A DNA stretch of 62,055 bases, from IMG/VR virus record IMGVR_UViG_3300045996_000553, positions 1 through 62,055 of that record. One strand, written 5' to 3'. Under the pieces are notes generated by a model. The model did not search any database and was not told the DNA's origin. It saw only the letters and a program-made list of their open reading frames with translations. This document shows positions 6,512 through 28,064 of the stretch, piece after piece (within the stretch, counting starts at the first letter, position 1; each line of letters begins with the position of its first letter). This DNA is from a virus (Duplodnaviria > Caudoviricetes). The position numbers were made by a program, and so were the translations under genes.

Positions 6512-7845
6512 TATGCTTCCCATCCTTTCAGTTCGTTCCAACGTTTCCCGTATTTCGCATCCGATTTTAAAGGAACAGCAAACCGAACAACCTTCTCCAA
6601 AGCCATATGAGATAAGATTTTCGGTATCCAGAAATCTAAAGCGTTATCATTTATTTCGAAAATTACGCTATCATGCACAGCAAGGTGCATAGTCGGTGCT
6701 TCCGGTCCATACGCCTGAAACTCCGCGTCCATATTCGTAATCGCTATACGAAGGACTTCATTCGCTCCTCCCTGGATTACAGGGTTCGGCGCAGCATACG
6801 CCTTGTTGTAAAGCCTCCCGTCTTTCAGAAGAATATCAGGAAAACGGCGAACCCTTCCCGTCCACATCTTCACGTAGCGATTTCGCTGTGCGAATGATAC
6901 GGTTTTGTCGATCCATGCTTTGATAGCGGGAAATCGCTTGTTGTAGTCGTCTAAGATATTTTTGGATGCTCCGAGTTCCGTCCAAAACAGTTTCCCTTCT
7001 TCGGTAGACCATTCAGGATAGGTTTCATCTTTCTTTCTTCGCATATTCTTTGCAAGGTAAAATCCTGTTTCTTCCGCATTTTCACACGTAAAAATATCCA
7101 TCGTTTGCAGTAAGTCTATTAGTTTCACGCCTTCCAGTCGCAGCGAGTTCACAAGTCCTTGAGGACCGGCTCCATAAATGGCTGTAAAGTTTACGCGCTT
7201 TGCAACTTGTCTCGGTATGTTAAGCAGTTCAGCCGTTTGCGTGTGAACGTCGATGCCATTGTTGTAAGCGTAAATCAGATTCGGGTCCTGCGACATATGA
7301 GCAAGAATACGAAGTTCGATCTGACTTTCATCACAGTCCACAAGCGTTTTACCGGGAGGAGATACAATGGCTCCCCGCACGTTGTAGATTTCGCTCTCCC
7401 TCGGCAGAGTTTGCAAGGCAGGACGCTTGATCGAAGCCCTACCTGCCGCCGTCAGCAAGGCGAAATCAGGATGAAGGCGATTGTTCTCATCCAAACATTC
7501 GAGGAACGGGATGAAATAAGTGTCTCTCGCTCTCCCCCATTTTCGGTAGTCGTTCAATAGCATGGCTATCGGGTGTTCGCTATCTTCCAAAGCCTGCCTT
7601 GCCGTCGATTTCATTCCTAGGACTTTACCGACCTGTGCAGGAGAGTTCAGATTGAACTCCGTTCCTGCTTGCCGATGGATTTCAAGTTCAAGTTCCGACT
7701 GTTTTTCATTGCAGTTGATAACGGCTTGGTTAACGAAATCCGTGTCGATAAGACAGCCGTTGTCCTCCATTCGACCTACTGCTTCACCATAACGACATAT
7801 ATCAATTGCTAAATCCCAAAGTCCCTGCTGTTCAAGTCCTTTCAC
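6511..7845 (-). CDS. polA: Family A DNA polymerase, polymerase domain (split gene)
   Basis: FNLNSPAQV, GR.S..PALQTLP, motif A CDESQIELRILAH, motif B AKRVNFTAIYG, motif C VHDS. Confidence 0.93.
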   Translation of the reverse strand: MKGLEQQGLWDLAIDICRYGEAVGRMEDNGCLIDTDFVNQAVINCNEKQSELELEIHRQAGTEFNLNSPAQVGKVLGMKSTARQALEDSEHPIAMLLNDYRKWGRARDTYFIPFLECLDENNRLHPDFALLTAAGRASIKRPALQTLPRESEIYNVRGAIVSPPGKTLVDCDESQIELRILAHMSQDPNLIYAYNNGIDVHTQTAELLNIPRQVAKRVNFTAIYGAGPQGLVNSLRLEGVKLIDLLQTMDIFTCENAEETGFYLAKNMRRKKDETYPEWSTEEGKLFWTELGASKNILDDYNKRFPAIKAWIDKTVSFAQRNRYVKMWTGRVRRFPDILLKDGRLYNKAYAAPNPVIQGGANEVLRIAITNMDAEFQAYGPEAPTMHLAVHDSVIFEINDNALDFWIPKILSHMALEKVVRFAVPLKSDAKYGKRWNELKGWEA

Positions 7846-8765
7846 TATTTACTCCCGTATCTGAGCAATTCATACAATTTATAAGTCAAAACAGCGTCTT
7901 GCTTTGCATACAAAGCAACGATTTCCAAGTCCAACTTCGCCAGTATCGACATAGGTTCAACTTTCTTTATGGCTGAAATCGCAATCATCGCCTTATTTCT
8001 CGCTTCGTAAAACGTGAGGAAATCGAGCAGCCCTGCCGAATGATCTTTCAGCTTTCGCTTGTTTATGTCAGCTATCTTCCCTCGCAACGTCGCTATGGTT
8101 TCTCCCATCTTTTCCAAATCAACAGATTCGTCCAGTTCTTCTCCTTTCTCTCGTTTCTTTTCCAGTCGATTGTATTGCAGCGTTAAAGGTTTCAGGGCTT
8201 CTTTGTAAACAGCTTTCTGTTCGGCTCTCCACGATTGTTCCATATGGCGAAGTTCGATTTCAGCAGCATCCCGTATCATTATTTGAGCGTTTAAACTCTC
8301 CGCAAGGTATTCGTTTGCAGCTTGTTTCAACGCCGTCTGTTCCGCCGTTTCGTCTATGCCGAAGTATTTTGCAGCCATAGGCTTCAGTCCGAAGGAAGGT
8401 TCGTTTTCTTCGTTCAGATGGGCCAGGAGCATACCGTCTACAATAAAAGCGTTTACCTCCACTCCTTCGTGCTTTAAAAACTTCGTATCGAACTTCCCGT
8501 TCCACGTAATGAGCCAGTTATCCTGATTTCCGAAGTATTCACGGACTTGATCGTGAAAGAGTTCAGGAGAGAGTTGGTAGTTGATTTCGTGACGTATCGG
8601 GATATAGTAGGACTGCTCGTTGCTTGGCAGAAAAAAGGAGTGTCCGATGATCTTATCCCCATTGAAAGGACGTAAACCCGTCGTTTCCAAATCAAAAGCG
8701 ACAGACTGATTGGAATACAGTTCTTCAATAAATGGTTTCAGTTGTTCTTCGTTTTGGATAATCAT
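7845..8765 (-). CDS. Family A DNA polymerase, 3'-5' exonuclease domain (split gene)
   Basis: ExoI FDLETTGL, ExoII WNGKFD, ExoIII YAKQDA. Confidence 0.9.
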   Translation of the reverse strand: MIIQNEEQLKPFIEELYSNQSVAFDLETTGLRPFNGDKIIGHSFFLPSNEQSYYIPIRHEINYQLSPELFHDQVREYFGNQDNWLITWNGKFDTKFLKHEGVEVNAFIVDGMLLAHLNEENEPSFGLKPMAAKYFGIDETAEQTALKQAANEYLAESLNAQIMIRDAAEIELRHMEQSWRAEQKAVYKEALKPLTLQYNRLEKKREKGEELDESVDLEKMGETIATLRGKIADINKRKLKDHSAGLLDFLTFYEARNKAMIAISAIKKVEPMSILAKLDLEIVALYAKQDAVLTYKLYELLRYGSK

Positions 8766-13641: not shown

Positions 13642-15066
13642 CTATCTCCTTTCTTCTCTAACTCGCTTGTCAGCCATTTTGATAATCTCCTCCGTCAGTT
13701 CCCGTTTGTTGTTCAGAAGCGGTTCTATACGCAGCGTTTCTATACTATTCTCCACAAGCAGTTCATAAATGGTTACGGCTTTCTTTTGCCCCGGCCTGTG
13801 TATCCGGTTCGCAGCCTGTTCGTTCGCAGCGTCACTCCACACTTTATCTAGGAAAACACAGATACTCGCTTCCGTAAGGTTTAAGCCTACGCCTCCGCTT
13901 TGCGTCGTCAGCCATACCACCTGAACGTCATTCTCCTTCCTGAAAGCGGATAGGGCTTCGTCTCGCAGTCGCGTATTCTCTTTCCCTGTGTGTCTCACAG
14001 CCTTAATGCCGTTCTCCTCACACATCGCCATTCCGAGCGTTACAGCCCGTTCAAACTGCGTGAATACGACGATCTTTTGATCTGTGGATTGGATGAGTTC
14101 AAGCAGGACTTCAAACTTCGAGGTTTTCCAACCATGGCCGAACTTTTCACCATTCAGAAGCGGCATAACGGCAAGGTCAGGACTGATGCAAAACTGCTTG
14201 AGTCTCGTTATCTGGCTGATAATAACCGGAGCCGCTACCTCCCGGTTCTCTTTCAATTGCGCTATCCACTCGGCAAGCATTTCATCGTAAACCTTCTGCT
14301 CATCCGGTTTCAGCTTCACATAGATTTTTTGGTAAGTTTTTTCCGGCAGGTCAGGAAGGACTTCCTCTTTCAGTTTACGGCGAAAGATCGGAGCTATTTC
14401 CTGTTTCAAAGCGTCAGGGTTTTTCGAGCGTATTCCCACCGTTACCCCGCCGAAAGCGTTCTTCTCCTTTCCGCAGCCATAGACAGGATGATCGACAAAA
14501 CGCCAGTAACTCGAATATCTCTGACGATCTATCATATGAAGCAGCGTCCATAAATCGGGAACCTTGTTGTAAATAGGAGTTCCCGTTAGCAAAAACAGAG
14601 TAGGTATGTGTTGCGCTAGATGGTTGATGCCAAGATAGGAGAGCGTTTTCCGGTTCCGAAGCACATGGGCTTCATCCACGCTCAAACTCTCGAAACCCAT
14701 CTTCGCTATGGCTGACAGTTCAAAAGGAATCGTTCGATCCTTTTTGATCTTCAACTGTTCATAGTTGCAACAAAGGACCCCTTGCCTCCCCATGTATTCT
14801 GAAAGAATTTGTTCCCGTTTTTTCGCCGTTCCTTCAAGGATCGTGAACGGGGCTTCGGGATACCATAAAGAAAACTCAGCCTGCCAGTTCCTTTTTAGAC
14901 TGGCGGGACAGACGACAAGCATTTTGGAGTGTTTCAGGGCTTTGAGCGTCATAATCACGGAATTGGTTTTGCCCAATCCCATATCATCGCCTAAAATGCA
15001 TCGCTTCTGCTGAACCATCCAGTTACGGTTTTCTACCTGGTGCGGGAAAGGTTTCAGTTCAGTCAT
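13642..15066 (-). CDS. SNF2-family helicase
   Basis: DDMGLGKT, VVCPASL, DEAH, LTGTPI.N, GGVGLNL, EQAANRIHRPGQ. Confidence 0.93.
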   Translation of the reverse strand: MTELKPFPHQVENRNWMVQQKRCILGDDMGLGKTNSVIMTLKALKHSKMLVVCPASLKRNWQAEFSLWYPEAPFTILEGTAKKREQILSEYMGRQGVLCCNYEQLKIKKDRTIPFELSAIAKMGFESLSVDEAHVLRNRKTLSYLGINHLAQHIPTLFLLTGTPIYNKVPDLWTLLHMIDRQRYSSYWRFVDHPVYGCGKEKNAFGGVTVGIRSKNPDALKQEIAPIFRRKLKEEVLPDLPEKTYQKIYVKLKPDEQKVYDEMLAEWIAQLKENREVAAPVIISQITRLKQFCISPDLAVMPLLNGEKFGHGWKTSKFEVLLELIQSTDQKIVVFTQFERAVTLGMAMCEENGIKAVRHTGKENTRLRDEALSAFRKENDVQVVWLTTQSGGVGLNLTEASICVFLDKVWSDAANEQAANRIHRPGQKKAVTIYELLVENSIETLRIEPLLNNKRELTEEIIKMADKRVREERR

Positions 15067-15491
15067 TTTTGTTCCATACCGCAAGCACGACAAGTCCCGT
15101 CCGTTACCGTGTCACAGTTCCAACAAAGATTCGGTTCCTTCGGTTCTCTGATTTCCGTAACTTTTACTTTTATCCAATGGTTTTCTTTCTTTATAGTTTC
15201 GGAAAATGCTAATAACGTAACGGGAGAAAACCAACCTTCCCATTCAAACAAAGGAGGTTCTTCCGTTTCTTCTTCGATTAGCGGGAGAAGTTCGGCAAAA
15301 TCACAAACGATTTCACCTATACCATTTATTTGAACATCAGCCATACTGCCTTCACATACTTCTTTTATTACTCCCATTTCTCCGATATGTTCTCCTATCG
15401 CATATTCATACGAAGCAATATATTTTTGCAATCCTGGTATGCCTAAATCAGCAACCACGCGCACTCTATCTCCTACCTTGAAGTTATGCAT
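15063..15491 (-). CDS. Hypothetical protein (KOW/SH3-like N-terminus, C-terminal Zn ribbon)
   Basis: FKVGDRVRV; CWNC..CRAC. Confidence 0.7.
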   Translation of the reverse strand: MHNFKVGDRVRVVADLGIPGLQKYIASYEYAIGEHIGEMGVIKEVCEGSMADVQINGIGEIVCDFAELLPLIEEETEEPPLFEWEGWFSPVTLLAFSETIKKENHWIKVKVTEIREPKEPNLCWNCDTVTDGTCRACGMEQK

Positions 15492-15493
15492 AA

Positions 15494-15766
15494 TCAGTTT
15501 CTCCCTGGACGGTAATCCATCGCTTCAGCCATTGCTCTATCGGTATCTACGTTCTTCGCATCCGCTTCCAGTTCCACAACGTTTTCTAAAATATCGCTCA
15601 ACGCTTCGGCGCATTTTGAACACGCATGACCGTCGTTTTTCCTATAGGTGTGCCCACCGATCTTTACGCCTGGAATCGTAATATGAACCGTATCCCGTTC
15701 CGTAAGGTAGGGCAACGTGTCGGATTTTTGGCAAAAGTCGCACTGGAAAACTTTTATTTCAGCCAT
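15494..15766 (-). CDS. Zn-binding hypothetical protein
   Basis: CDFC...CSKC. Confidence 0.7.
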   Translation of the reverse strand: MAEIKVFQCDFCQKSDTLPYLTERDTVHITIPGVKIGGHTYRKNDGHACSKCAEALSDILENVVELEADAKNVDTDRAMAEAMDYRPGRN

Positions 15767-15778
15767 AACAAGTATCTC

Positions 15779-16225
15779 CTATCGTAAAATAGTTTCGTTT
15801 AAAACTTTTTCAAGCGAATTCAAGTTTCCAGGCGTTTGATCTTTCACGTATTTTAACGCTGCCATGTAAACGTTCTCCAAACAGCGCGTTCGATCTTTCA
15901 CACGTTCAAGCAACGCGCACGTATGATCTTCTTCGATGTATTTCACCATATCCGAAGAACGCCTTGCTCTCATTTCCTGTTTGATAACGATCATATTTTT
16001 ATCTATGGCGGTTTTGGCAAAAACGGCTTTACTTCTCCATTTCTGAAAGTCGATATTGCTTATTCGCATCCCAAAATTATCTGTTTTGTTCCGGTTGGCT
16101 AGTTGTTGTTCAATGTGCATTTTTTCCGTTTTCAATCTATCGAATTCTTCTTCCAGTTCCTCCATTTCCCATGTAGAAACGTTTGTCGTATCTTTTAACG
16201 GTTTATCCTCATAAATTTCAGCCAT
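15779..16225 (-). CDS. Hypothetical protein
   Basis: Operon ORF with RBS. Confidence 0.75.
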   Translation of the reverse strand: MAEIYEDKPLKDTTNVSTWEMEELEEEFDRLKTEKMHIEQQLANRNKTDNFGMRISNIDFQKWRSKAVFAKTAIDKNMIVIKQEMRARRSSDMVKYIEEDHTCALLERVKDRTRCLENVYMAALKYVKDQTPGNLNSLEKVLNETILR

Positions 16226-16226
16226 G

Positions 16227-16451
16227 TTAGATCAATCCTTTCGGCTCATAGGGTTTCACTTGAGTGAAACATCCTTGTTTTATGGCTTGTTCGATATGGT
16301 GCAGAACCAATCCGAGTTCCAATACGCCTTGTTCCAACACGCTTGCTTTTATTTCCCCGATGATTTCTCCAATTAAATCAAGACTCAAACTTTCGGCAAT
16401 CTCTTTTGAAGAGTTATCCAAGCAGTTATGTTCAGCCATTATCAACCACAA
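16227..16451 (-). CDS. Hypothetical protein
   Basis: Operon ORF; start may be ATG at 16439. Confidence 0.6.
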   Translation of the reverse strand: MWLIMAEHNCLDNSSKEIAESLSLDLIGEIIGEIKASVLEQGVLELGLVLHHIEQAIKQGCFTQVKPYEPKGLI

Positions 16452-16545
16452 CCTTTCTCACTCAAAAATGTGAACAACTGGTAACAAAAGAACGTCCATG
16501 CCGCCGCTACGAACAACCAGGACAGTTTATCTCCTAACGTTGAAT

Positions 16546-16770
16546 TCATCTGCTCATACCTCCAATAAAAGCCAACAAGTGAAAGATCAACCAGACAGGG
16601 AGAATAATGATAAGGAAACCTGTCAGAAACCCTCCTGTGAACGTTTTAGGCGGATTGCGAGTAGGAAGAGGTTCTTCCCGTTGCCTTCGCTGTCCCGCTG
16701 TCCTGGCGCGTTTGGGCCGCGCTTCTCTTTCCCAATCCTCTTCGGGCAGTTTCTCGCCTGCTTCCAACAT
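16546..16770 (-). CDS. Small membrane-anchored protein
   Basis: GAGGAG RBS, C-terminal TM helix. Confidence 0.7.
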   Translation of the reverse strand: MLEAGEKLPEEDWEREARPKRARTAGQRRQREEPLPTRNPPKTFTGGFLTGFLIIILPVWLIFHLLAFIGGMSR

Positions 16771-16848
16771 AAAATCTCCTCTCGTAAATAGGACGGGAAA
16801 ATGATTTTAAATGAGTTTATCAGCTTAAGTCAGTTTCTAAGTGTCTTT

Positions 16849-16878
16849 ATTCTATCTGGTTTCCGTCTTGTTTGTCAA
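16849..16878 (-). promoter_or_regulatory. sigma70-type promoter
   Basis: TTGACA-18 nt-TAGAAT. Confidence 0.65.
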
Positions 16879-17088
16879 CTAAGACTTACTTCCTCCTCTC
16901 GCTGACGTGGAATCGAACAACAATTTGCAAATGAACGCCAATCGAAACATTTCCCAAAAAGACAGTTTCGGAAGTCCGAAAATCGGCATAGTAGTATTCC
17001 AAAGATACTGACAAAACCACGTTCCGACAAAGAAAAACGCTGCTGCCATTCCGATTATGGAAAGACAAGAAATTGCTTTTTCACTCAT
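16879..17088 (-). CDS. Small membrane protein
   Basis: LWN..MP.IFGLP.LSFW motif seen in phage membrane proteins. Confidence 0.75.
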   Translation of the reverse strand: MSEKAISCLSIIGMAAAFFFVGTWFCQYLWNTTMPIFGLPKLSFWEMFRLAFICKLLFDSTSARGGSKS

Positions 17089-17288
17089 ACCTCTTCCCCT
17101 TTCTTAATCCGAACAGGTTTTCCGTTCGGTTGGATGAAATAGCAATCGACGGAAAATCCTTGGTTTTCAAAGAAGTTGTTCAGTTCCTCCTCCCACGTTT
17201 CAGGATCGGTTCTGATCGGAATATCCGCTTGATGCCAGTCTTTGTAATCCGTTGTAATCAGGTCGCCTGTTCTTGGTTTACGTTTCAT
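17085..17288 (-). CDS. Hypothetical protein
   Basis: ATGA-coupled ORF. Confidence 0.7.
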   Translation of the reverse strand: MKRKPRTGDLITTDYKDWHQADIPIRTDPETWEEELNNFFENQGFSVDCYFIQPNGKPVRIKKGEEV

Positions 17289-17581
17289 ATTCTTACCCCT
17301 TCCCGATAGCCATGCTCAACCATTTCCAAATCTTCGCCATAAGCGGATTCAATCCGTATGCCGCAATTCCCGCATTCTAAGGAATCATCTTCATAGTTGA
17401 CCTCAACGTGTGTAGGGGTGTTCTCCGGCCCGTATTCTCCTCTGACTTCCCTAGAGGCGCAATCAGGGCAAGAGACTTCGCCTGTGTTTTCGTTGAAGTA
17501 GTAAAGCGGATAACCACCGGGCCAAGCCCAGGCCATAAGCGTAGATTCGGATACGAAACTGTCTGACGTGATTTCAGGCAT
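17285..17581 (-). CDS. Conserved phage hypothetical protein, Zn-binding
   Basis: AWPGGYPLYY, CPDC, CGNCG..IESAYG. Confidence 0.8.
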   Translation of the reverse strand: MPEITSDSFVSESTLMAWAWPGGYPLYYFNENTGEVSCPDCASREVRGEYGPENTPTHVEVNYEDDSLECGNCGIRIESAYGEDLEMVEHGYREGVRI

Positions 17582-17599
17582 TTTGAAGTTTCCTTTCTT

Positions 17600-17737
17600 C
17601 TACAATTTGTTCAACAAATTTTTTATATGCATTGCAACATGATAATTCGCTTCTCTAACCACATATTTTTTATTTAAAAGATCATATACGTGATAGTAAT
17701 TGCAATAATCACTTTCCTCTACAATAAATCTTTTCAT
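17600..17737 (-). CDS. AT-rich 45-aa hypothetical protein
   Basis: AGGAGG RBS; MKRFIVEESDYCNYYHVYD.. Confidence 0.6.
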   Translation of the reverse strand: MKRFIVEESDYCNYYHVYDLLNKKYVVREANYHVAMHIKNLLNKL

Positions 17738-17786
17738 TTCTTTACCTCCTAAAATGACCTGTGACAATCCTTATTCGATGTTGCAT

Positions 17787-17850
17787 AAGATACCCTGCTG
17801 ATGAGGCTTGCCCCTCTCTCCGTTGAACCTGGAAGGAGTGCGGGTATCTT
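17787..17850 (-). ncRNA. Putative three-way-junction RNA element
   Basis: 9-bp closing stem AAGAUACCC/GGGUAUCUU enclosing two short hairpins; strand uncertain. Confidence 0.45.
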
Positions 17851-17861
17851 GTGGTTTCGGT

Positions 17862-18095
17862 TTACTTGGAGAAGTTTTTAATCAGGTTTTTATATTCCGC
17901 AGGGCTTGTGTCAAAGGTAGCGGGGAAAATGTTTTTGAATTCAGGATAGACAGAAGTTAAAGCGGCAATTCCGCTATACTCCTCATCTATCGCTTGCACA
18001 ATATCGCCTGTCTTGGAATTCATAACGACATAAACTCTTCGGGGATTGCCGTTTCGATCATTCCCCGCGTTTAATCTGATAGCTGTGTGAGTCAT
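17862..18095 (-). CDS. Conserved phage hypothetical protein
   Basis: NDRNGNPRRVYVV motif. Confidence 0.75.
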   Translation of the reverse strand: MTHTAIRLNAGNDRNGNPRRVYVVMNSKTGDIVQAIDEEYSGIAALTSVYPEFKNIFPATFDTSPAEYKNLIKNFSK

Positions 18096-18097
18096 TT

Positions 18098-18337
18098 TTA
18101 GAGTTCCTTTCCTTTTCCGATTCCCCATGAAAAACCGATAACGAAGTTATAGAGGCTTTCCGTATTGTTAAATGTAAACTTCTTGAAACAACCTTCCACC
18201 GTAAAGCAAAGTTCTTTCCGAGACTCTCCTTCCACGTCTAAAATATCGATAGCAATACCGTAAAGTTTGGAAACGTCTGCCGCTATCTGTTTAGCGGCTT
18301 CCAGGTTAAAATCGAAGTCTGTTTTCGCTTGTTGCAT
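18098..18337 (-). CDS. Hypothetical protein
   Basis: GAAAGG SD inside RNA motif copy 1. Confidence 0.7.
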   Translation of the reverse strand: MQQAKTDFDFNLEAAKQIAADVSKLYGIAIDILDVEGESRKELCFTVEGCFKKFTFNNTESLYNFVIGFSWGIGKGKEL

Positions 18338-18345
18338 AATATCCC

Positions 18346-18412
18346 AACCTTTCCCTGTAGTTCACAGGCAAGCCCTTTGCAGGGCTTCCGCACTCGTTAA
18401 GCCGAAAGGTTA
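18346..18412 (-). ncRNA. Four-way-junction cis-RNA motif, copy 1
   Basis: Same architecture and conserved core as 20644..20712, with compensatory changes. Confidence 0.75.
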
Positions 18413-18955
18413 TGCAGTTTGAATAATCTCTCCAATCATCGTTTTGGGGATGCGATAGCGGCAATTCATATATACGCCGATGATTTTCGGGTCGGATTGT
18501 ATAACTGTAACTTGTGGAATGCTGCTATTGATAAGGGACAAGGTATCCCCTGGTTTGATATTTTCCAAAACGTTCTTTAACCTTGCCTTCTCATCTTTCT
18601 TGTAGGCTTGTTGTTCGGCGCATTTTATCCGGTAGTTTGCGGCGGATTCGTTTGGGCAGGGAACTTCTTCAAACCATTTGAGAGGGCAATCGTAGTAAAA
18701 AGGATGCATACTCTCATCGAGTCCCTTGTATCCCCAACCATAACCACGAGAGGAAACGAGAAGATCAATCCGAATATATTTGAGAAGGGATATGCCTTCG
18801 GGAGACTTTTTCTCCCACAAGGAATAAACCGTGTTCCCTACGGTTTTCTTCTCCTTGCAGGTATGAACGATGCCTGTGTGTCCATCTCCCCAATTCTTTG
18901 TTATGTCTGCAATAATGCTTGCCTTGGTTGCGCCGTAAGTGTAAGAAGTTCCCAT
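18410..18955 (-). CDS. Hypothetical protein (DUF6927-like)
   Basis: WGYKGLDESMHPFYYDCP motif. Confidence 0.75.
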   Translation of the reverse strand: MGTSYTYGATKASIIADITKNWGDGHTGIVHTCKEKKTVGNTVYSLWEKKSPEGISLLKYIRIDLLVSSRGYGWGYKGLDESMHPFYYDCPLKWFEEVPCPNESAANYRIKCAEQQAYKKDEKARLKNVLENIKPGDTLSLINSSIPQVTVIQSDPKIIGVYMNCRYRIPKTMIGEIIQTA

Positions 18956-18989
18956 TTGTTTTATTCTCCTTTGTGAGTGTGTAAGTATG

Positions 18990-19028
18990 TCTCTCCTCTG
19001 TCTTTATCTTATCTTAACAGAGGAGAGA
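18990..19028 (-). promoter_or_regulatory. Extended -10 element embedded in a 12-bp inverted repeat
   Basis: tctctcctctgt / acagaggagaga; minus strand TGtTAAGAT. Confidence 0.5.
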
Positions 19029-19054
19029 AAGGAACTGGTATTTTTAATAGGGTT

Positions 19055-19420
19055 TCAGGAAAGATAGATCAGTTCATCGTCTCCTGTATAAGCGTCTGTC
19101 TCTCCGTAACTGTGAGAAATTTGCGTCAGTTCTTCCCCGTTCTGTAAATCCCCGTCCCAAAACCCAGCGCCGTGTCTGTTGCGTGTCAACCAGAAGTCCA
19201 TTCCGGCTTTTTTATCGGAATAATCTCCTGCTTGAAATTCCTCTTCCCATAACGGCGAACAGATTTTGTAAAACGCGCTACATTCTAATTCGATTCTTTC
19301 CTGCGCCTCTTCGGAAAAATCGAATTGGTCTTTATCATCGGGGATAAGATCGTCCGTATCCCCTTGTGACGTAAAGAAAATCGCTTCAATGTATCCCTGC
19401 TTAAATTCTGTGTATCCCAT
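19055..19420 (-). CDS. Conserved phage hypothetical protein
   Basis: YIEAIFF..AGMDFWLTRNRHGAGFWD. Confidence 0.8.
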   Translation of the reverse strand: MGYTEFKQGYIEAIFFTSQGDTDDLIPDDKDQFDFSEEAQERIELECSAFYKICSPLWEEEFQAGDYSDKKAGMDFWLTRNRHGAGFWDGDLQNGEELTQISHSYGETDAYTGDDELIYLS

Positions 19421-19454
19421 GATTTAACCCTCCAAAATAACCTGCATAGTGACG

Positions 19455-19658
19455 CTAACGAACAAAACTGTGATGATGAGCCATTATCGCATCCTCTAAA
19501 ATCTGAATTCCACGCGGAGATTGCAATTCTACGCAAAGATTACAACCTTTCTCCCTACACGGACGGCAACCTTCTTGATACGGGATTGTGCAGTCACAAA
19601 GATGCGTAAAACCCTCTTGTTTTAGTTGAATCAGCATTGCTTTTGCTTTCTTTGTCAT
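19455..19658 (-). CDS. Cys-rich hypothetical protein
   Basis: GAAAGGA RBS; six Cys. Confidence 0.65.
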   Translation of the reverse strand: MTKKAKAMLIQLKQEGFTHLCDCTIPYQEGCRPCREKGCNLCVELQSPRGIQILEDAIMAHHHSFVR

Positions 19659-19708
19659 TGCTGTATCCTTTCATATTCCAATGTTGCGTTTGTTTACTGT
19701 GTAGCAAT

Positions 19709-19752
19709 CAGGCGCAATGGTTTGAACCTATCCCTTGGAAGCGATGCGCCTG
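19709..19752 (-). ncRNA. Putative structured RNA with T-loop-like hairpin
   Basis: CAGGCGCA/UGCGCCUG stem enclosing GGUUCAAACC. Confidence 0.45.
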
Positions 19753-19763
19753 TGATTTTTACG

Positions 19764-20222
19764 TTAGATCAAAACTTCTTCATATTCCCGATTCTCTATC
19801 TCGGTTTCAATGTAACCTTCCGCTAGTTCCGTATAATTTACGCCTCTCTTTCCGATCCAATTTCTCATTCGACTAGCTAAAACTTTGACAGCTTTCTCTT
19901 TGCTTTCCGATAACGTGTAAATCTGTTTGGCTTGTTTTGTCCAATAGTTGTAAGAATCCTGGTCATTGTCCATTTCTAAACCAACCTGCCACGTTTTGTA
20001 ATTTGTGTATCCCTGGTAGCTTTCTTCCGCTTTCTCCTCTTCATAACCGTCAAACCATTGTCCGTAACGTTTCGTTCGGTTTGTTTCCGTTTTGCCTGTT
20101 GCAGTTGTGGAACTCGTTTCGGGATTCTGGCAATGGGCTTGCGCTTCCTCTAGTGTTAAGCCTTTCTTGATTGTTCGGTTTGCGGAATTTTGGAAATGTC
20201 GAATGATTCGATAGGTCGCCAT
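19764..20222 (-). CDS. Two-domain conserved phage hypothetical protein
   Basis: GLTLEEAQAHC.NPETSS..WFDGY fused to YQGYTNYKTWQV. Confidence 0.8.
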   Translation of the reverse strand: MATYRIIRHFQNSANRTIKKGLTLEEAQAHCQNPETSSTTATGKTETNRTKRYGQWFDGYEEEKAEESYQGYTNYKTWQVGLEMDNDQDSYNYWTKQAKQIYTLSESKEKAVKVLASRMRNWIGKRGVNYTELAEGYIETEIENREYEEVLI

Positions 20223-20227
20223 TTTGA

Positions 20228-20434
20228 TTACTCCTTCTCATCTATCGGGGAATGATAAATTCCGCTTCGTGTTTTAGGTTCCAGTTTTAAAACATCTTCC
20301 GCAAACAGGAAAGAAGATGTTAAATACTTCTTCCCTAATCGCTTTTCTTTACTCCAGACCGCTTTATCGTTTTTCCATCCGACAAAATATGCTTCTGTGG
20401 ACATTTTGCGAATGTGTCCGACTTCGTAAGACAT
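20228..20434 (-). CDS. Hypothetical protein
   Basis: GGAG RBS; resembles 23027..23230 (Y..G..W). Confidence 0.7.
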   Translation of the reverse strand: MSYEVGHIRKMSTEAYFVGWKNDKAVWSKEKRLGKKYLTSSFLFAEDVLKLEPKTRSGIYHSPIDEKE

Positions 20435-20438
20435 TTTG

Positions 20439-20633
20439 TTACTCTCCCTTTCTCATAATTGCCGCCATTCGATTAAACTTCTCGGTATTGTTTTCTTTCC
20501 AGACGCTAGCGGCTTGTCTCGCTTCGTTCCTGCTAGATGACAATGGCTTTTCGTTTCGTCTTGTTTCTTCCGTGTCAATAGTTTGTAAAGCCATAAAGGG
20601 AATTCTTGTTTTCTCGTTTAACATACTTTTCAT
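20439..20633 (-). CDS. Hypothetical protein
   Basis: ATG at 20633, 10 nt after the GAAAGG of RNA motif copy 2. Confidence 0.7.
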   Translation of the reverse strand: MKSMLNEKTRIPFMALQTIDTEETRRNEKPLSSSRNEARQAASVWKENNTEKFNRMAAIMRKGE

Positions 20634-20643
20634 CGGTTTGTTT

Positions 20644-20712
20644 CCTTTCCCCTTATCAGAAGGGTAGGAAGCCATTAAAGACTTCCCCCGCACGATTTAC
20701 GCCGAAAGGTTA
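20644..20712 (-). ncRNA. Four-way-junction cis-RNA motif, copy 2
   Basis: CCUUUC/GAAAGG closing stem plus three hairpins; covaries with copy 1. Confidence 0.75.
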
Positions 20713-21123
20713 AAGCAGGTTTCCTTCGGAATCCGTCAGACACTCGTCTAATGGTTGCACCGGATACATAATCGAGCCGATATTCCTGTATTGCGTCTGA
20801 TAATGTTTGTTGCGAAATTCTTCTTCATTCTGGTAGGTTGTGTATGCCGTTTTCACAATGGCGTTTGGGTTTAACTGGTAGAGATTGGAAAAGAATTTTG
20901 CGAATCCATACCAGTTAATCGCGTTCTTTTTCCTGCCGCTCATTCCCGATTGTGAAAGCCATTTCTTTTCTTGCGGATTCGGGGAAAGTTTCACGTTAAA
21001 TCTGTCGCCTTTGGCATTTAACGGCTTGAAATTGTCCAACCGAATTCCGCCTGTGAGGATAGCTGCTTGCTCTATCTGTTCCTTTGTGACGTTTGCAATA
21101 ACCATTGGAATAGTTCCTTTCAC
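20710..21123 (-). CDS. Hypothetical protein
   Basis: Operon ORF directly downstream of the hammerhead; start may be the internal ATG (MVIAN). Confidence 0.75.
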   Translation of the reverse strand: MKGTIPMVIANVTKEQIEQAAILTGGIRLDNFKPLNAKGDRFNVKLSPNPQEKKWLSQSGMSGRKKNAINWYGFAKFFSNLYQLNPNAIVKTAYTTYQNEEEFRNKHYQTQYRNIGSIMYPVQPLDECLTDSEGNLL

Positions 21124-21125
21124 GT

Positions 21126-21194
21126 TCGGATTAGACTCATTCAGCTAGGGATTCATCCGATTTACCCTAAGACCCCTAGAAAGGGGTTTCGTCT
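21126..21194 (-). ncRNA. Type II hammerhead ribozyme with pseudoknot
   Basis: AGAC-GAAA-CCCC(UUUCUA)GGGG-UC-UUAGGG(loop)CCCUAG-CUGAAUGA-GUCU; loop I UCGGAU pairs with 3' AUCCGA. Confidence 0.88.
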
Positions 21195-21452
21195 TTAATC
21201 TTCGTAAAGTAGGCAATCTTCTTCCTGGCAAGGGCAAGTTTCAACGGTTCGCATTGCATAGCTATCACGCGCTACTGCTTCATAGTCGCCATTAGAGCCG
21301 GATACTTTGAAACCCTGTTCCTTGTAATCCTCTTTCGCGCTGATTGCATAACTTACAGCGTCTTTTCGGTTTGTGAATACTTGGTTATCATCCGGCATAC
21401 AACCGGGAATTCCTACCAGAACGTGATAATGTTGAAACTGCTTGGTTGCCAT
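21195..21452 (-). CDS. Hypothetical protein
   Basis: GAAAGG RBS; PGCMPD motif. Confidence 0.75.
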   Translation of the reverse strand: MATKQFQHYHVLVGIPGCMPDDNQVFTNRKDAVSYAISAKEDYKEQGFKVSGSNGDYEAVARDSYAMRTVETCPCQEEDCLLYED

Positions 21453-21474
21453 AATGGTTGCCTTTCGTGGAATG

Positions 21475-21519
21475 TAGCAAGCAAGACTGTTTTTGAGAAT
21501 TGTCGGGTCTTGCTTGCTA
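21475..21519. repeat. Perfect 13-bp intergenic inverted repeat
   Basis: tagcaagcaagac / gtcttgcttgcta. Confidence 0.85.
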
Positions 21520-21532
21520 GGGTTGGTTGTTG

Positions 21533-21829
21533 TTAGATCATTCTTCCGTATTCATCCCGAAGGATGTTAGCGTTGTGTGAACCATAACGCGCCGCTTTTG
21601 ACTTCGTGATATTCCAATATTTGATAAGATTGGTTCCGTCTTGAAGAACAATACCGGGAATATCTTCCTCTAGCGTATTCGGGTAATCTTCGGGAAAGTC
21701 TCTAACTTCCTGCCATTCTTTTACCGCTTCTTTGTAATACTGTAGGGCTTTCTTTTCCTCTCCAAATTTCACGATAGAGGATTGGTAATACTTTCCGTTT
21801 TCTCTGTCGATAAACCTAACGTAATACAT
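21533..21829 (-). CDS. Hypothetical protein
   Basis: GAAAGGA RBS, upstream promoter. Confidence 0.75.
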   Translation of the reverse strand: MYYVRFIDRENGKYYQSSIVKFGEEKKALQYYKEAVKEWQEVRDFPEDYPNTLEEDIPGIVLQDGTNLIKYWNITKSKAARYGSHNANILRDEYGRMI

Positions 21830-21868
21830 TTCATCTTCCTTTCGTCTGTCGTTCGCCTTAACAACACC

Positions 21869-21897
21869 ATTTTAGCAGGATGAAATAAAGATGGGAA
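21869..21897 (-). promoter_or_regulatory. sigma70-type promoter
   Basis: TTCCCA-17 nt-TAAAAT with extended TG. Confidence 0.55.
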
Positions 21898-22364
21898 CTA
21901 TCATTTCTGATAGTGTTTTCTCGTCTTTAAATCGTCTGTCTTGACGCTTGCTCATAAGCAATCTTGTTTATTGTCTGTCCTTGCCTATGGAACGTCCTGT
22001 AGTAAAGGTGTGAACAGACGTTCATACTCGTTAAAGCCATTAGACGGTGTTAGGCGTGGATTTATACCTATACGCTTGTATCTTGGTAAACGTCCTATGC
22101 TTTCCTCCTTCGTAAACAATAGGTTATAAGCGAAAAACGGGTCTAAATCAGTATGCTAGGTTAGTAAAACCATTTGATAAGCAATAAAGCGTTGCATAAT
22201 AAAGAATGAGTATCGTTAAGCGTATCGTTAGAGGAAAAATGAGGGTATCGTTAGGCGTGGATTAGGCGTGAGCGGTCGCTTCTTGGCAATAGACCCAACC
22301 ATTGGGAAGAGTAAGGGACCGTCTCGCTTGGTAGTAGCATAGGAGTTCAACCCTAACCCAGATC

Positions 22365-22421
22365 GGGGATAGATATATATTATTCTATCCCCGTAGGGGA
22401 TATAATATATATCTATTCCCC
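22365..22421. repeat. AT-rich nested imperfect palindrome
   Basis: ggggatagatatatattattctatcccc-gta-ggggatataatatatatctattcccc. Confidence 0.8.
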
Positions 22422-22442
22422 TGGGAAGGGTCCGGGAATTTT

Positions 22443-22643
22443 TTATGCTCGGTTGCTTTCCCGAATTTCGTATCTCGAAAAAGTTTTGAGAATTCGCGAT
22501 TGGTTTTCGAGGTGATCTTGGAGTTTTTCCACCGAGGAAAAAGTTTGGGTTCGGGTTCCGAATTCCCCGATTGCATAAAAGCCGGAAAAAACCCGATAGA
22601 CGGTAAAAGATTCGTTTTGAGTTCGGATTACTGCTATTGGCAT
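22443..22643 (-). CDS. Hypothetical protein
   Basis: AAGGAG RBS. Confidence 0.65.
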   Translation of the reverse strand: MPIAVIRTQNESFTVYRVFSGFYAIGEFGTRTQTFSSVEKLQDHLENQSRILKTFSRYEIRESNRA

Positions 22644-23026
22644 CTCATTCTCCTTTTTGGAATAGGGCTATTTGACCTGAGAATCGTTTCTGTGACGTTT
22701 TAATGGTTTGGGCGGGTGATTTACCGTAGGCCGGAAAAATTTTGTCTCTCCGCCCATTCTTGCGGGAATTCAGGGGAGTTTCGGTTGGAACGAATCGAGT
22801 TCCCCTGCAAAATCTCTTAAGCGAGCAAATAACTCTAAGTCTCTTGCGCTCATTCCGGCCCATAATTTTGTTGCGAGAGGAAACATTTCATAAATCTTTT
22901 CTTGCAAGGGAGTGAACTTCATTTTAGGAATAGCCTTTCTTGCCCCTACGTTGACCGTAGGGGCGATAGAATATGGTTTGGGTGTGATTTGACGTGGAAG
23001 GTTGAAATTTTGCGTGTGTGGCGATT

Positions 23027-23230
23027 TTAGAAGCGTTCCACTTCTAACGATTCTGCCCCGTAACGTTCGGCTAGCAGGTTAAACGTTTTCTCCACTTGTT
23101 TCGCTTCGATATGCGCGGCGGAAGTAATTTCCTCTTCCCATCTCACCCAGGAAGAGTAATTTCCGAATCCTGCGTAATACTTGCCCGTCAGTTTGCGCTT
23201 GATAGCATAAATTCCCGTTGCGTATTGCAT
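23027..23230 (-). CDS. Hypothetical protein
   Basis: GAAAGG RBS. Confidence 0.7.
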   Translation of the reverse strand: MQYATGIYAIKRKLTGKYYAGFGNYSSWVRWEEEITSAAHIEAKQVEKTFNLLAERYGAESLEVERF

Positions 23231-23274
23231 TGCATTGCCCTTTCTAAGCGTGAATCAGTGTCATTTGTTGCAAT

Positions 23275-23315
23275 TTCCCGCCCCGGAATCGAACCGGGGA
23301 GAAACCATTCAGGAA
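23275..23315 (-). ncRNA. tRNA-like minihelix (acceptor-like stem + T-arm)
   Basis: UUCCUG/CGGGAA stacked on CCCCGG-UUCGAUU-CCGGGG; no D or anticodon arm. Confidence 0.6.
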
Positions 23316-23440
23316 GTTTTGATTTTTTTCTTATCGGCCTTGATTTTTTCGATTCGACAGGTTGTGCAAAGGGTTTCACCCACATAACCCACAAACCAAT
23401 TGCATACTTCACATTTCACGATTTTAGGCTCTCTTTCCAT
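23309..23440 (-). CDS. 43-aa Zn-finger protein
   Basis: MEREPKIVKCEVC..LCTTC; GGAG RBS; not in ORF track. Confidence 0.65.
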   Translation of the reverse strand: MEREPKIVKCEVCNWFVGYVGETLCTTCRIEKIKADKKKIKTS

Positions 23441-23527
23441 AATGGTTGCTCCCTTTCATTGCCTCGCTAGCTTAAAGCGAGGTTACAGGTTTCTTTTACT
23501 AGAGGACGGTAGCGGGTAGCTAGCGTG

Positions 23528-23749
23528 CTACATACGCTTTGCAGGGATTCGATAAATCTCAGTTCCCATTGCCATTTCTCCGGCAAGCATATCGTGAAAG
23601 TCTGCGATATGCTTGTATGCAGCCGATACTCCCTTGGTTTGCTCCTCCCATACGCGCTTTGCTTTGTTCCACGTCACTACTGCCGATGTCTCGTATTGTG
23701 CCTTGACGGGTCTGTAGTTGCTTGCCGCCACATATAGCAGTTTATTCAT
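23528..23749 (-). CDS. Hypothetical protein
   Basis: AAGGAG RBS. Confidence 0.7.
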   Translation of the reverse strand: MNKLLYVAASNYRPVKAQYETSAVVTWNKAKRVWEEQTKGVSAAYKHIADFHDMLAGEMAMGTEIYRIPAKRM

Positions 23750-23758
23750 GGTTGCTCC

Positions 23759-23932
23759 TTAGAATGAATTGGTGAACCGAGCGAAGTCTGACACCGTTTT
23801 GAACGTGATGCTCTTCCCTGTAGCGCGGAAGGTATAGACTACTTCCCATGTTTTCTCCCCTGCCTCTACCTTGGCGGTAGCTTGATACCAGATTGCGCTT
23901 TCTTTGACCCGGTTGGCTTCGTATGTATTCAT
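23759..23932 (-). CDS. 57-aa hypothetical protein, first gene of leftward operon
   Basis: MNTYEANRVKESAIWYQ..; AAGGA RBS. Confidence 0.65.
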   Translation of the reverse strand: MNTYEANRVKESAIWYQATAKVEAGEKTWEVVYTFRATGKSITFKTVSDFARFTNSF

Positions 23933-23984
23933 TGGGGTGTCCTTCCTTTATCCTTGGATCGTCTACACTTCGTCTTACACACTT

Positions 23985-24012
23985 ATTATAGCAGGTATTA
24001 TTTTATATGCAA
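23985..24012 (-). promoter_or_regulatory. Strong leftward promoter
   Basis: TTGCAT-16 nt-TATAAT with extended TG. Confidence 0.75.
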
Positions 24013-24194
24013 GCCTTTTTGACTATTACTTTTGATAGGGGGGACCCATTTTTTTGTGGGACCATTCTCACAGGTAGTCCGACGCGATTCACCGTTACGA
24101 ATTTTTAAAATTTCCCACCCCTCTTTTACGTCCCTATTTCGTCTTTCCCTAACTTTCCAAAAAAATTTACTACAAAAATAATCAAAATAAAGTC

Positions 24195-24223
24195 TTGACA
24201 TCATCCTAAGAGTGTCCTATACT
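24195..24223 (+). promoter_or_regulatory. Rightward sigma70-type promoter
   Basis: TTGACA-17 nt-TATACT. Confidence 0.8.
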
Positions 24224-24240
24224 ATTAATGGTAGTGATTA

Positions 24241-24816
24241 ATGCCCGATCCACTAACAACTCCCATTCACGAAAGGGCAACTCTAATGGCGTTCGAGAGA
24301 TACAATCCGCAAACAAGAGCGACAAGAAAGTATGTCAAAGTCGAAGACGTTCCTCCGTTCCTGTCCATCGCAAAATCGTTGGGGATGTATGTCAATCCTT
24401 CAGCGATCCATCGTTTCGATCTGCACGCCTCCCGTTATGTCGATCTGTTTTACGACCGCTCCACTCAGAAAATCGCCCTTCGGTTTCTCGGGGAACCCAC
24501 CGATACGTCCTCCCGAAAGTTGACCCCGACGGAATCCGCAGTCGGGAACGTCGGGTTTCAGTTCTCCGCTTCAGGATTTCTGAACTTCTATGGCATCCCT
24601 GTGGTGGAAACCAGGAAATACAACCTCACCCTCTCTAATGGTTTGGTTGTGGCGGATTTGAAATCCCCGTTCGTTTCGACGGTTCAAAAACCGGAACCCC
24701 AAACATTGAAGGAAGTTTTTGAGGAAGAGGAATACGTCGCTCCCAAACCTCAGAAGAAAGTCGTCGCTCCGCTACCCTTCCCCTCCGTGTGGGAGCAAAC
24801 CAAAGGAGATTTTTAA
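24241..24816 (+). CDS. Hypothetical protein, possible AbrB/MraZ-like fold; paralog of 28079..28495
   Basis: P..SI..G.Y.N..A..YVDLFYD..KIALRF; start may be 24286 (MAFERY). Confidence 0.7.
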   Translation: MPDPLTTPIHERATLMAFERYNPQTRATRKYVKVEDVPPFLSIAKSLGMYVNPSAIHRFDLHASRYVDLFYDRSTQKIALRFLGEPTDTSSRKLTPTESAVGNVGFQFSASGFLNFYGIPVVETRKYNLTLSNGLVVADLKSPFVSTVQKPEPQTLKEVFEEEEYVAPKPQKKVVAPLPFPSVWEQTKGDF

Positions 24817-24818
24817 CA

Positions 24819-25142
24819 ATGGCTGAGATTATCCTAGCGGGAGAAAAACAAACAGAAAAACCTTCGGTGGATGTGGAACTGAACGTGCTGTCGGTAAAAC
24901 TGGAAAACATCGACAACGAACTTTCGGCTTTAACAGGAGAACTGAATAACGTGCTTCAACCGGAGTTTACTGCAACAACGCTGAGTTCGGGAACTCTTTC
25001 GACAACAGGAGTTATACGTCTGAACGAAACGCCGGTGGTTTCTCAGGACAGCGTTCTGGTATCGAAGGTGAAATCCCTCTCGAAACAAGCGCAGGAGATG
25101 CATGATCGGCTGCATCGGCTGACGGAAAGGCTTCAGGTATGA
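24819..25142 (+). CDS. Coiled-coil hypothetical protein
   Basis: AGGAG RBS. Confidence 0.7.
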   Translation: MAEIILAGEKQTEKPSVDVELNVLSVKLENIDNELSALTGELNNVLQPEFTATTLSSGTLSTTGVIRLNETPVVSQDSVLVSKVKSLSKQAQEMHDRLHRLTERLQV

Positions 25143-26315: not shown

Positions 26316-26508
26316 ACCGAAGTTCACGCGGGAAGAAATCGAAGAGGAGATAAAACTTCTCGAACAAGAGGATTATGTTAAGGCTCCTGAAATCATCGAA
26401 CAACTCCTGAAAGAAAATGACGAACTGAAAGCGATGTTGAAAGAAGCGAAAGAAGTTATACGGGAAGTGGAAGAGAAACATAACAAGATATATTTAATAT
26501 CGTCTTGA
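26308..26508 (+). CDS. Coiled-coil hypothetical protein
   Basis: Operon ORF. Confidence 0.65.
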   Translation: MAEPKFTREEIEEEIKLLEQEDYVKAPEIIEQLLKENDELKAMLKEAKEVIREVEEKHNKIYLISS

Positions 26509-26533
26509 TTTTATCTATCAAACGTCTTATACT
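26505..26533 (+). promoter_or_regulatory. sigma70-type promoter
   Basis: TTGATT-17 nt-TATACT. Confidence 0.65.
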
Positions 26534-28005: not shown

Positions 28006-28035
28006 TGGCTGTTCCAAGTTTCCCTGCGTAACGTC

Positions 28036-28064
28036 TTGACATTATCTGAAGTTTGTCTTATACT
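28036..28064 (+). promoter_or_regulatory. sigma70-type promoter
   Basis: TTGACA-17 nt-TATACT. Confidence 0.8.

Follow-up and report, generated by a model that had tools for sequence, protein, structure and literature searches.

What role could be played by a four-helix RNA fold that a phage genome carries twice, each time between the stop codon of one gene and the Shine-Dalgarno sequence of the next? The question is raised by IMG/VR phage record IMGVR_UViG_3300045996_000553, a linear record of 62,055 bases with an estimated completeness of 64%, which we analysed over its full length and refer to as the window. An earlier reading of the bare sequence, the original prediction herein, had singled out two such folds. 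Our analysis indicates that they are a real, strand-specific, two-copy structured intercistronic element; it is a local curiosity and not an established new RNA class. The answer that we favour, tentatively and with somewhat less than even confidence, is that each copy may act in cis as an mRNA structure that, judging from its sequence and modelled fold, would occlude the downstream Shine-Dalgarno sequence and couple translation of the downstream open reading frame (ORF) to that of the upstream ORF. On the best reading, the element is private to its lineage and possibly bistable.

Two copies of one element connect a stop codon to a Shine-Dalgarno sequence

Both elements lie on the minus strand of the window, copy 1 at 18412-18348 (65 nucleotides (nt)) and copy 2 at 20712-20644 (69 nt). 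They share the architecture UAA-CCUUUC-G-[P2]-GCGG-[P3]-G/A-[P4]-GAAAGG, in which CCUUUC and GAAAGG form the closing helix P1 around three internal hairpins, P2, P3, and P4. Copy 1, for instance, reads UAA CCUUUC G GCU-UAACG-AGU GCGG AAGCCC-UGCAAA-GGGCUU G CCUGU-GAACU-ACAGG GAAAGG, and the parts of both copies are located in Table 1. When the copies were aligned, the blocks TAACCTTTCGGC, TAA, GTGCGG, and GAAAGG were identical between them, and P3 and P4 had almost no sequence in common. The dimensions are nonetheless kept. P2 has 3 base pairs (bp) and P4 has 5 bp in both copies, P3 measures 6 bp (copy 1) or 8 bp (copy 2), the loops of P2, P3, and P4 measure 5, 6, and 5 nt in both, with the P2 loop starting UAA, and the connectors of the junction are 1, 4, 1, and 0 nt long. 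With no spacer between them, the 3′ strand of P1 directly adjoins P4, giving an 11-bp stack.

The element is also fixed precisely with respect to its neighboring genes. Its TAA is the in-frame stop codon of the upstream ORF in both copies (P0003 for copy 1 and P0004 for copy 2), and CCUUUC is made up of the six bases immediately 3′ of this codon. At the other foot, the end of GAAAGG lies 10 nt before the ATG of the downstream ORF (P0001 and P0002, respectively). The similarity between the copies is bounded by TAA at the 5′ side and by GGGAAAGG at the 3′ side. Upstream of TAA the copies have no real similarity, and we rejected a conservation reaching into the upstream ORFs because the ungapped identity there is only ∼31%. 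Protein-coding conservation of the block was rejected as well, since the differences are non-synonymous in the frame read through the stop codon, and kissing of the P2 loop with the P3 or P4 loop was rejected because no complementarity is common to both copies.

Reading and aligning the sequence thus bore out what the original prediction had said of the arrangement: two minus-strand copies with identical junction blocks and differing hairpins of constant loop size (P3 varying in length), each starting at the upstream UAA and bringing GAAAGG to the same distance from an AUG. The coordinates that it gave for copy 2 were exact; for copy 1, the end had been placed at 18346, which is 2 nt too far.

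The element is repeated beyond chance and folds on one strand

The core pattern CCTTTCGGCN{5,12}GTGCGG matched the window twice, once in each copy, with 0.01 matches expected; none of 100 shuffles contained two or more. A covariance model, R1, was built from the two copies and run on the whole window with filters off. Copy 2 scored 88.5 bits and copy 1 82.7 bits, and no other copy was present. The next-best scores, 17.8 and 14.8 bits, belonged to the antisense strands of the elements themselves, and everything else remained at or below 11.9 bits. The fold is strand specific, as a consequence of its G.U pairs, which turn into A.C mismatches on the opposite strand.

In both copies, each of the 17 pairs of the model is a standard pair; 4 of them are changed on both sides. 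With P3 taken in the register of the junction, the count rises to 20 pairs with 7 double changes and none broken, and the internal difference between the copies in P2 is compensatory. The proteins that flank one copy are not paralogues of those that flank the other (BLASTP E = 2.2 and 0.28). This implies that the element itself is the repeated unit, and not a duplicated gene cassette.

The closing helix is predicted to pair a ribosome-binding site with the bases after the stop codon

By its sequence and normal spacing, GAAAGG on the 3′ strand of P1 is a genuine ribosome-binding site. On a crude ORF map, motifs containing GAAAGG are the commonest type of Shine-Dalgarno sequence, standing 6-12 nt before 23 of 106 ORFs, and GAAAGG occurs 49 times on the sense strand of the window. 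Its identity in both copies would follow from its being the standard Shine-Dalgarno core of this phage, and CCUUUC, as its exact complement, mimics an anti-Shine-Dalgarno tail. The original prediction was right that the closing helix, as modelled, pairs a Shine-Dalgarno sequence with the bases directly after the upstream stop codon, which places the partner strand within reach of the upstream ribosome.

When folded in isolation, both copies adopt the four-way fold as their minimum free energy structure, at −28.3 kcal/mol (z = −3.14) for copy 1 and −26.1 kcal/mol (z = −1.86) for copy 2. The probabilities of P1, P2, P3, and P4 were 0.96, 0.35, 0.97, and 0.97 in copy 1 and 0.99, 0.21, 0.98, and 0.91 in copy 2. 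P3 is robust in every folding context (0.93-0.99), and P4 is likewise a robust hairpin. Since these two stable hairpins and the weak P2 occupy the gap between the strands of P1, they would bring the strands together. We also computed the energy of the duplex between stop-proximal and Shine-Dalgarno-proximal segments for 42 intergenic spacers of 25-250 nt, among which copy 1 ranked first (−11.5) and copy 2 seventh (−8.2). Stop-to-Shine-Dalgarno pairing as a phage-wide habit was rejected, because it stands out only in these elements among the 42 spacers.

Each copy has a further pairing of its own. In copy 1 only (18330-18417, minus strand), AUGCA at the downstream start codon can find a partner in the UGCAU that immediately precedes the stop codon; this pairing would lengthen the closing helix and sequester the AUG. 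In copy 2 only (20720-20735 and 20702-20709, minus strand), the final codons of the upstream ORF contain CCGAAGG, a sequence able to pair with CCUUUCGG and so perhaps to act as another competitor for the anti-Shine-Dalgarno strand.

Stable hairpins at an intercistronic position in a long early operon are what one would also look for in an RNA processing or stability element, that is, a site for RNase III, for RNase P (if P1 and P4 stacked in the manner of a tRNA), or for RNase E/Y, and/or a set of protective hairpins. The 11-bp P4/P1 stack does resemble the acceptor/T stack of tRNA, and a related phage has many intergenic hairpins in this region. RNase III substrates, however, typically extend over roughly two helical turns, and the helices here reach only 3-8 bp. 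A tRNA-like gene was rejected, as ARAGORN found no tRNA or tmRNA in the window, and the connectors and loops of the element are unlike those of tRNA, where the connectors are 2, 1, 4-5, and 0 nt and the loops 7 nt. Processing would, moreover, leave unexplained both the exact span from stop codon to Shine-Dalgarno sequence and the anti-Shine-Dalgarno mimic, and we consider it an unlikely function.

A local hairpin is predicted to compete with the closing helix

The RNAalifold consensus of both copies showed a different pairing of the conserved 5′ block, which can pair with itself as CUUUCGGCN-loop-NGU(G)CGGRRG (Table 1). All nine pairs of this hairpin are standard in both copies, with one double-sided change (U-A to G-C) and two changes from A-U to G.U. 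The block alone folds at −6.6 kcal/mol in copy 1 and −7.0 kcal/mol in copy 2. Within the whole element, the conformer containing the hairpin reaches −19.9 kcal/mol versus −28.5 kcal/mol for the four-way fold in copy 1, and −19.4 versus −26.1 kcal/mol in copy 2, so that the four-way fold is favored by 6.7-8.6 kcal/mol. The hairpin cannot coexist with P1 or with the base of P3, and when 5′ prefixes of growing length are folded, the hairpin is the first to appear. The invariant G, GCGG, and first purines of P3 can thus be read as one side of a competing hairpin, and no tertiary core is needed to account for them. In this respect we go beyond the original prediction, which had noted that the junction bases are identical: a local 9-bp hairpin that engages CUUUC in competition with P1 makes a tertiary core unnecessary.

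The two exclusive folds suggest how coupling might operate. The mRNA channel of the ribosome and its helicase reach ∼11-13 nt beyond the P site. A ribosome halted at the UAA would cover and unzip exactly the six bases of P1, and the local hairpin would then capture the released CCUUUC. Such capture, which could be the reason why the G, GCGG, and first P3 bases are conserved, would leave GAAAGG exposed for some time, long enough for a 30S subunit to start translation at the next AUG. If the upstream ORF is not being translated, the four-way fold, as the more stable of the two, would re-form and lock the site. If this holds, the element would be a portable module of 65-69 nt that makes the translation of whatever gene follows it dependent on termination at the stop codon in front. 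The competing hairpin could set the time for which the ribosome-binding site stays open, making the element a clean natural example of a ribosome-driven RNA switch and a usable part for the design of operons with defined stoichiometry.

The same conserved bases can be read as a binding pocket. In a protein- or ligand-gated operator, the junction (G, GCGG, and the UAA of the P2 loop) would be bound, and binding would either stabilize or open the helix in which the Shine-Dalgarno sequence is locked. Invariant junction and P2-loop bases amid variable stems, a Shine-Dalgarno sequence within the closing helix, and an element common to two unrelated downstream genes, much like a regulon, all agree with this. 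The local hairpin, however, fully explains the conserved bases, there is no Rfam similarity, and the downstream genes are ORFans that offer no metabolic link. Known riboswitch classes are widespread, with an aptamer that recurs across taxa next to linked genes, whereas the collections searched here (see below) hold no homologue. We judge a gated operator to be rather improbable.

The element belongs to no curated RNA family

Searching the whole window with Rfam 15 gave no match at the gathering score. At E ≤ 10, the region 18200-20850 returned only look-alikes of snoU13 and U6, both located elsewhere, and the single elements returned, at best, Spy1786666 with 17 bits (cut-off 64) and CRISPR-DR23 with 14.1 bits (cut-off 45), followed by COG2908 with 10.9 bits (cut-off 58.7) and isrH with 7.5 bits (cut-off 45). 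Going by these sequence searches, the element is a member of no curated RNA family, in line with the original prediction, which could match it to none. A mimic of a CRISPR repeat was rejected: the CRISPR-DR23 score has E = 2 and concerns copy 1 only, and the core pattern occurs in GTDB at nine loci with a single match each and in no arrays. A promoter within the element was also rejected, since a scan of 15000-25000 for sigma-70-like sites found none within or adjoining the two copies.

These searches bear on whether the element is a new self-cleaving ribozyme whose catalytic core would be the conserved junction. Its likeness to one is of a general kind only, an invariant junction from which variable stems extend. 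With lax filters and the elements alone, no Rfam ribozyme family, including hammerhead, twister, twister-sister, hatchet, pistol, hairpin, and HDV-like, reached E ≤ 10. The conserved bases pair in the alternative hairpin, and, unlike the known classes, which are widespread, the element has been found only as two copies in a single genome. We regard self-cleavage as scarcely credible. A broader proposal would make the element a new four-way-junction RNA class whose invariant junction is a ligand or protein pocket, or a self-processing site between the stop codon and P1, that gates or punctuates accessory early genes in a soil phage lineage; we hold this to be very unlikely. Its milder variant is a ribosome-operated bistable switch that would exchange the four-way fold for the local hairpin at each termination.

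No homologue was found outside the window

Pattern scans combined with R1, as well as blastn, revealed no homologue in IMG/VR, JGI metagenomes, GTDB genomes, or GenBank phages. The original prediction had proposed a covariance-model search of this kind; among the collections scanned, only the two copies of the window score high. In IMG/VR, the core pattern CCTTTCGGCN{5,12}GTGCGG was present in at least 118 stretches, and among the matches listed there was no further copy. Among the 122 matches listed for this pattern in 120 loci, GAAAGG followed within 70 nt in four cases, namely the two copies described here and two unrelated sequences. The pattern CCTTTCGGCNTAANNNGTGCGG had no match in IMG/VR, and TAANNNNNCGGCNTAANNNGTGCGG had two, both unrelated. 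The looser pattern CGGCNTAANNNGTGCGGN{28,50}GRRRRR was found at 94 IMG/VR loci with a best R1 score of 18.2 bits; a closing strand complementary at all six positions occurred in 3 of the 94, and the hairpins were found in none of the 25 best. Lastly, CCTTTCGGCNNNNNNNGTGCGG matched 56 IMG/VR stretches, and a closing strand at the right distance was seen in 0 of 60 distinct segments. The 49 stretches from JGI metagenomes reached at best 16.7 bits with R1, and all resemble chance or coding sequence. The best of the nine GTDB loci scored 27.1 bits and lies inside a 269-amino acid (aa) ORF on the opposite strand. Among GenBank phages, blastn gave no match to the 5-kb region and only fragments of 19-35 nt to the element, at E ≥ 0.2.

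Searches guided by a neighboring gene and by other genes of the phage had the same outcome. The 43 IMG/VR loci with distant homologues of P0003 (577,059 bases) held no R1 match at E ≤ 5. Relatives sought by the SNF2 protein alone were not found. The portal alignment comprised nine loci, and scanning the whole records of five of these gave an R1 match at E ≤ 10 in none. Together with the ORFan nature of the downstream genes, these negative searches indicate that, within the collections covered, the element is private to this phage.

The closest relative, an IMG/VR contig of 44,232 bases (G001; locus L319), shares 79% portal identity, is syntenic with the window over 13.6-60.7 kb, and matches 46 of the 106 window ORFs. 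It lacks all genes of the blocks 20228-21829 and 18098-19658, which carry the copies; the elements are not located at the borders of these variable blocks. The early region of G001 (∼36.6-44.2 kb) is itself a mosaic in which conserved small genes are interleaved with unrelated blocks. Most of its long spacers hold strong hairpins, and in one of these hairpins GGGAAAGGAUU has its partner strand close to the stop codon before it.

The confinement of both copies to blocks missing from a syntenic relative could mean that they are DNA-level repeats without a specific RNA function, such as the remnant of a cassette or a recombination linker carried along with accessory genes, their hairpins being generic. 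That intergenic hairpins are common in the lineage and that GAAAGG is a frequent motif would fit such an origin. On the other hand, the junction spacing and loop sizes are exact although P3 and P4 differ in sequence, the change in P2 is compensatory, and the G.U pairs confer strand specificity. Neither a promoter-like site nor flanking repeats nor upstream homology accompany the copies, and their distance from the block borders also argues against a linker. We find a mere DNA repeat distinctly improbable.

Assessment of the coupling interpretation

Several observations weigh against coupling by this element, beginning with the fold. P1 is the closing helix of the minimum free energy structure only for the element alone or with its 3′ flank (0.95-0.99), and its probability falls to 0.01-0.42 once 30-150 nt of upstream coding sequence are added. 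The prediction is therefore sensitive to context; in the cell, ribosomes would cover the upstream sequence. P2, with 3 bp and pair probabilities of 0.35 and 0.21, is thermodynamically marginal, and when the pairedness of Shine-Dalgarno sequences was compared over a −100/+20 segment, copy 2 ranked only 99th of 106. A plain hairpin would suffice for coupling, which leaves the three internal hairpins and the conserved UAA loop unexplained. The closest relative has neither element and manages without.

The remaining points concern conservation. The element is known from only two copies in a single genome, with no homologue in the collections searched. In the shuffle control for covariation, 31 of 500 shuffles reached the observed values, which is not significant; such statistics have no power with only two sequences, and covariation in the sense of R-scape cannot be shown for two paralogous copies. 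The word "covarying" in the original prediction accordingly holds insofar as pairs are kept across differing stems, and goes too far as a statement about covariation.

Taken together, no rival has positive evidence beyond a general resemblance. Of the three roles that had been put forward at the outset, translational coupling fits best, and the ligand-gated and self-cleaving RNAs found no support.

Genomic setting

The window encodes a PrimPol-helicase, an SNF2 helicase, a PD-(D/E)XK nuclease, and a Mu-type portal. Its family A DNA polymerase is split (6511-8765, minus strand), with a 3′-5′ exonuclease ORF at 7845-8765 abutting the polymerase ORF at 6511-7845. The polymerase is less than 60% identical to all 2904 matching records, and those listed share 27-30%; by this sequence comparison, there is no close cultured phage. 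The stretch is present in a single sequencing run, a DNA run from a soil metagenome that is probably its source, and no RNA run holding it was found in the sequencing-run listing. From the Shine-Dalgarno usage and the rRNA sequence, we assume, as a candidate only, a Firmicutes-like host whose 16S rRNA tail is ...CCUCCUUUCU.

Both elements lie within a leftward early operon of small ORFs with no assigned function. Homologues of P0003 terminate at a similar C-terminal position. P0001 has no PHROG or Pfam match and found only itself in 5.8 billion proteins; P0002, in a 78-aa form, found only itself among 1.84 billion representatives. This form is the public gene call, which starts 14 codons earlier at an AUG (20675-20673) within the P3 loop. 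On sequence grounds, the better candidate for the start is the ATG at 20633, which follows GAAAGGA at a distance of 9-10 nt. The alternative ATG of P0004 at 21105 is likewise preceded by a GAAAGGA Shine-Dalgarno sequence.

The spacer upstream of P0003 (18953-19057, minus strand) contains a strong hairpin (−23.7 kcal/mol, z = −4.67, with 0 of 200 shuffles as good). At its foot, UUCCUU pairs with AAGGAG, the Shine-Dalgarno sequence of P0003, and its 5′ arm holds the anti-Shine-Dalgarno-like run UUCCUUUCUCUCCUCUG. Judging from this hairpin, occlusion of ribosome-binding sites appears to be a habit of the operon. Elsewhere, a 36-nt repeat occurs in three plus-strand copies (24188-24223, 26498-26533, and 28029-28064) with a near-consensus sigma-70-type promoter, the first being TTGACA-17-TATACT; judging from their sequence, the rightward early operon is probably transcribed from these repeats.

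Table 1. Positions of the two elements, their parts, the competing hairpins, and the flanking ORFs in the window
Feature	Position	Strand	Details
Copy 1, UAA stop	18412-18410	−	
Copy 1, P1 5′ strand	18409-18404	−	CCUUUC
Copy 1, connector	18403	−	G
Copy 1, P2	18402-18400 with 18394-18392	−	GCU/AGU, loop UAACG
Copy 1, connector	18391-18388	−	GCGG
Copy 1, P3	18387-18382 with 18375-18370	−	AAGCCC/GGGCUU, loop UGCAAA
Copy 1, connector	18369	−	G
Copy 1, P4	18368-18364 with 18358-18354	−	CCUGU/ACAGG, loop GAACU
Copy 1, P1 3′ strand	18353-18348	−	GAAAGG
Copy 1, core pattern match	18388-18409	−	
Copy 1, alternative hairpin	18385-18408	−	CUUUCGGCU-UAACG-AGU(G)CGGAAG, 9 bp, one bulged G
Copy 2, UAA stop	20712-20710	−	
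Copy 2, P1 5′ strand	20709-20704	−	CCUUUC
Copy 2, connector	20703	−	G
Copy 2, P2	20702-20700 with 20694-20692	−	GCG/CGU, loop UAAAU
Copy 2, connector	20691-20688	−	GCGG
Copy 2, P3	20687-20680 with 20673-20666	−	GGGAAGUC/GGCUUCCU, loop UUUAAU
Copy 2, connector	20665	−	A
Copy 2, P4	20664-20660 with 20654-20650	−	CCCUU/AAGGG, loop CUGAU
Copy 2, P1 3′ strand	20649-20644	−	GAAAGG
Copy 2, core pattern match	20688-20709	−	
Copy 2, alternative hairpin	20685-20708	−	CUUUCGGCG-UAAAU-CGU(G)CGGGGG
P0003, upstream ORF of copy 1	18410-18955	−	181 aa, phrog_21047, element starts with its TAA
P0001, downstream ORF of copy 1	18098-18337	−	79 aa, ORFan
P0004, upstream ORF of copy 2	20710-21123	−	137 aa from GTG, or 131 aa from ATG 21105
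P0002, downstream ORF of copy 2	20439-20633	−	64 aa, ORFan

Comparison with known systems

The portions of the literature on intercistronic four-way-junction or Shine-Dalgarno RNAs of phages that were available to us describe no such element, and several known systems share single traits with it. Riboswitch and attenuator platforms have in common with it an anti-Shine-Dalgarno strand with two exclusive pairings, here P1 and the GCGGRRG side of the local hairpin. They differ in that no recognizable aptamer, Rfam match, or phylogenetic spread is seen here, and the trigger that we propose would be a terminating ribosome and not a ligand. The RNase III sites of phages, such as the R sites of T7 and the SP82 sites in Bacillus, are likewise repeated, structured, and partly conserved between early genes; those sites form extended duplexes that are almost uninterrupted apart from an internal loop, whereas the helices here are short and end at a stop codon and a Shine-Dalgarno sequence. 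The promoter-early stem-loop (PeSL) cassettes of T4-type phages are also repeated intergenic modules in a hyperplastic early region that varies between relatives, but our element has no promoter-like site, exists in two copies only, and lies away from the borders of the variable blocks. In the ribosome shunting of plant pararetroviruses, too, a stop codon stands at the 5′ foot of a structure and a start codon shortly past its 3′ foot; that mechanism depends on eukaryotic scanning, and shunting is without evidence in bacteria or here.

The nearest comparison is classical translational coupling, in which helices that occlude a Shine-Dalgarno sequence are opened by upstream ribosomes, as in the long-range pairing between the coat and replicase genes of MS2 and Qbeta and in E. 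coli rpmI-rplT. As in those systems, the downstream Shine-Dalgarno sequence would be paired (as predicted for the isolated element), its partner lies where the upstream ribosome passes or stops, and the function would be to tie the expression of one gene to that of another. Parts of the literature on coupling deal with Qbeta (PMC2978339) and with initiation versus reinitiation (PMC3592434). What distinguishes the present element is that no base separates the stop codon from the partner strand, that the helix closes a predicted four-helix junction, that a local hairpin would compete with it, and that the whole is reused before two unrelated genes. The element is new in form, as a helix set exactly at a stop codon, closing a four-helix junction, and serving as a module before two unrelated ORFan genes.

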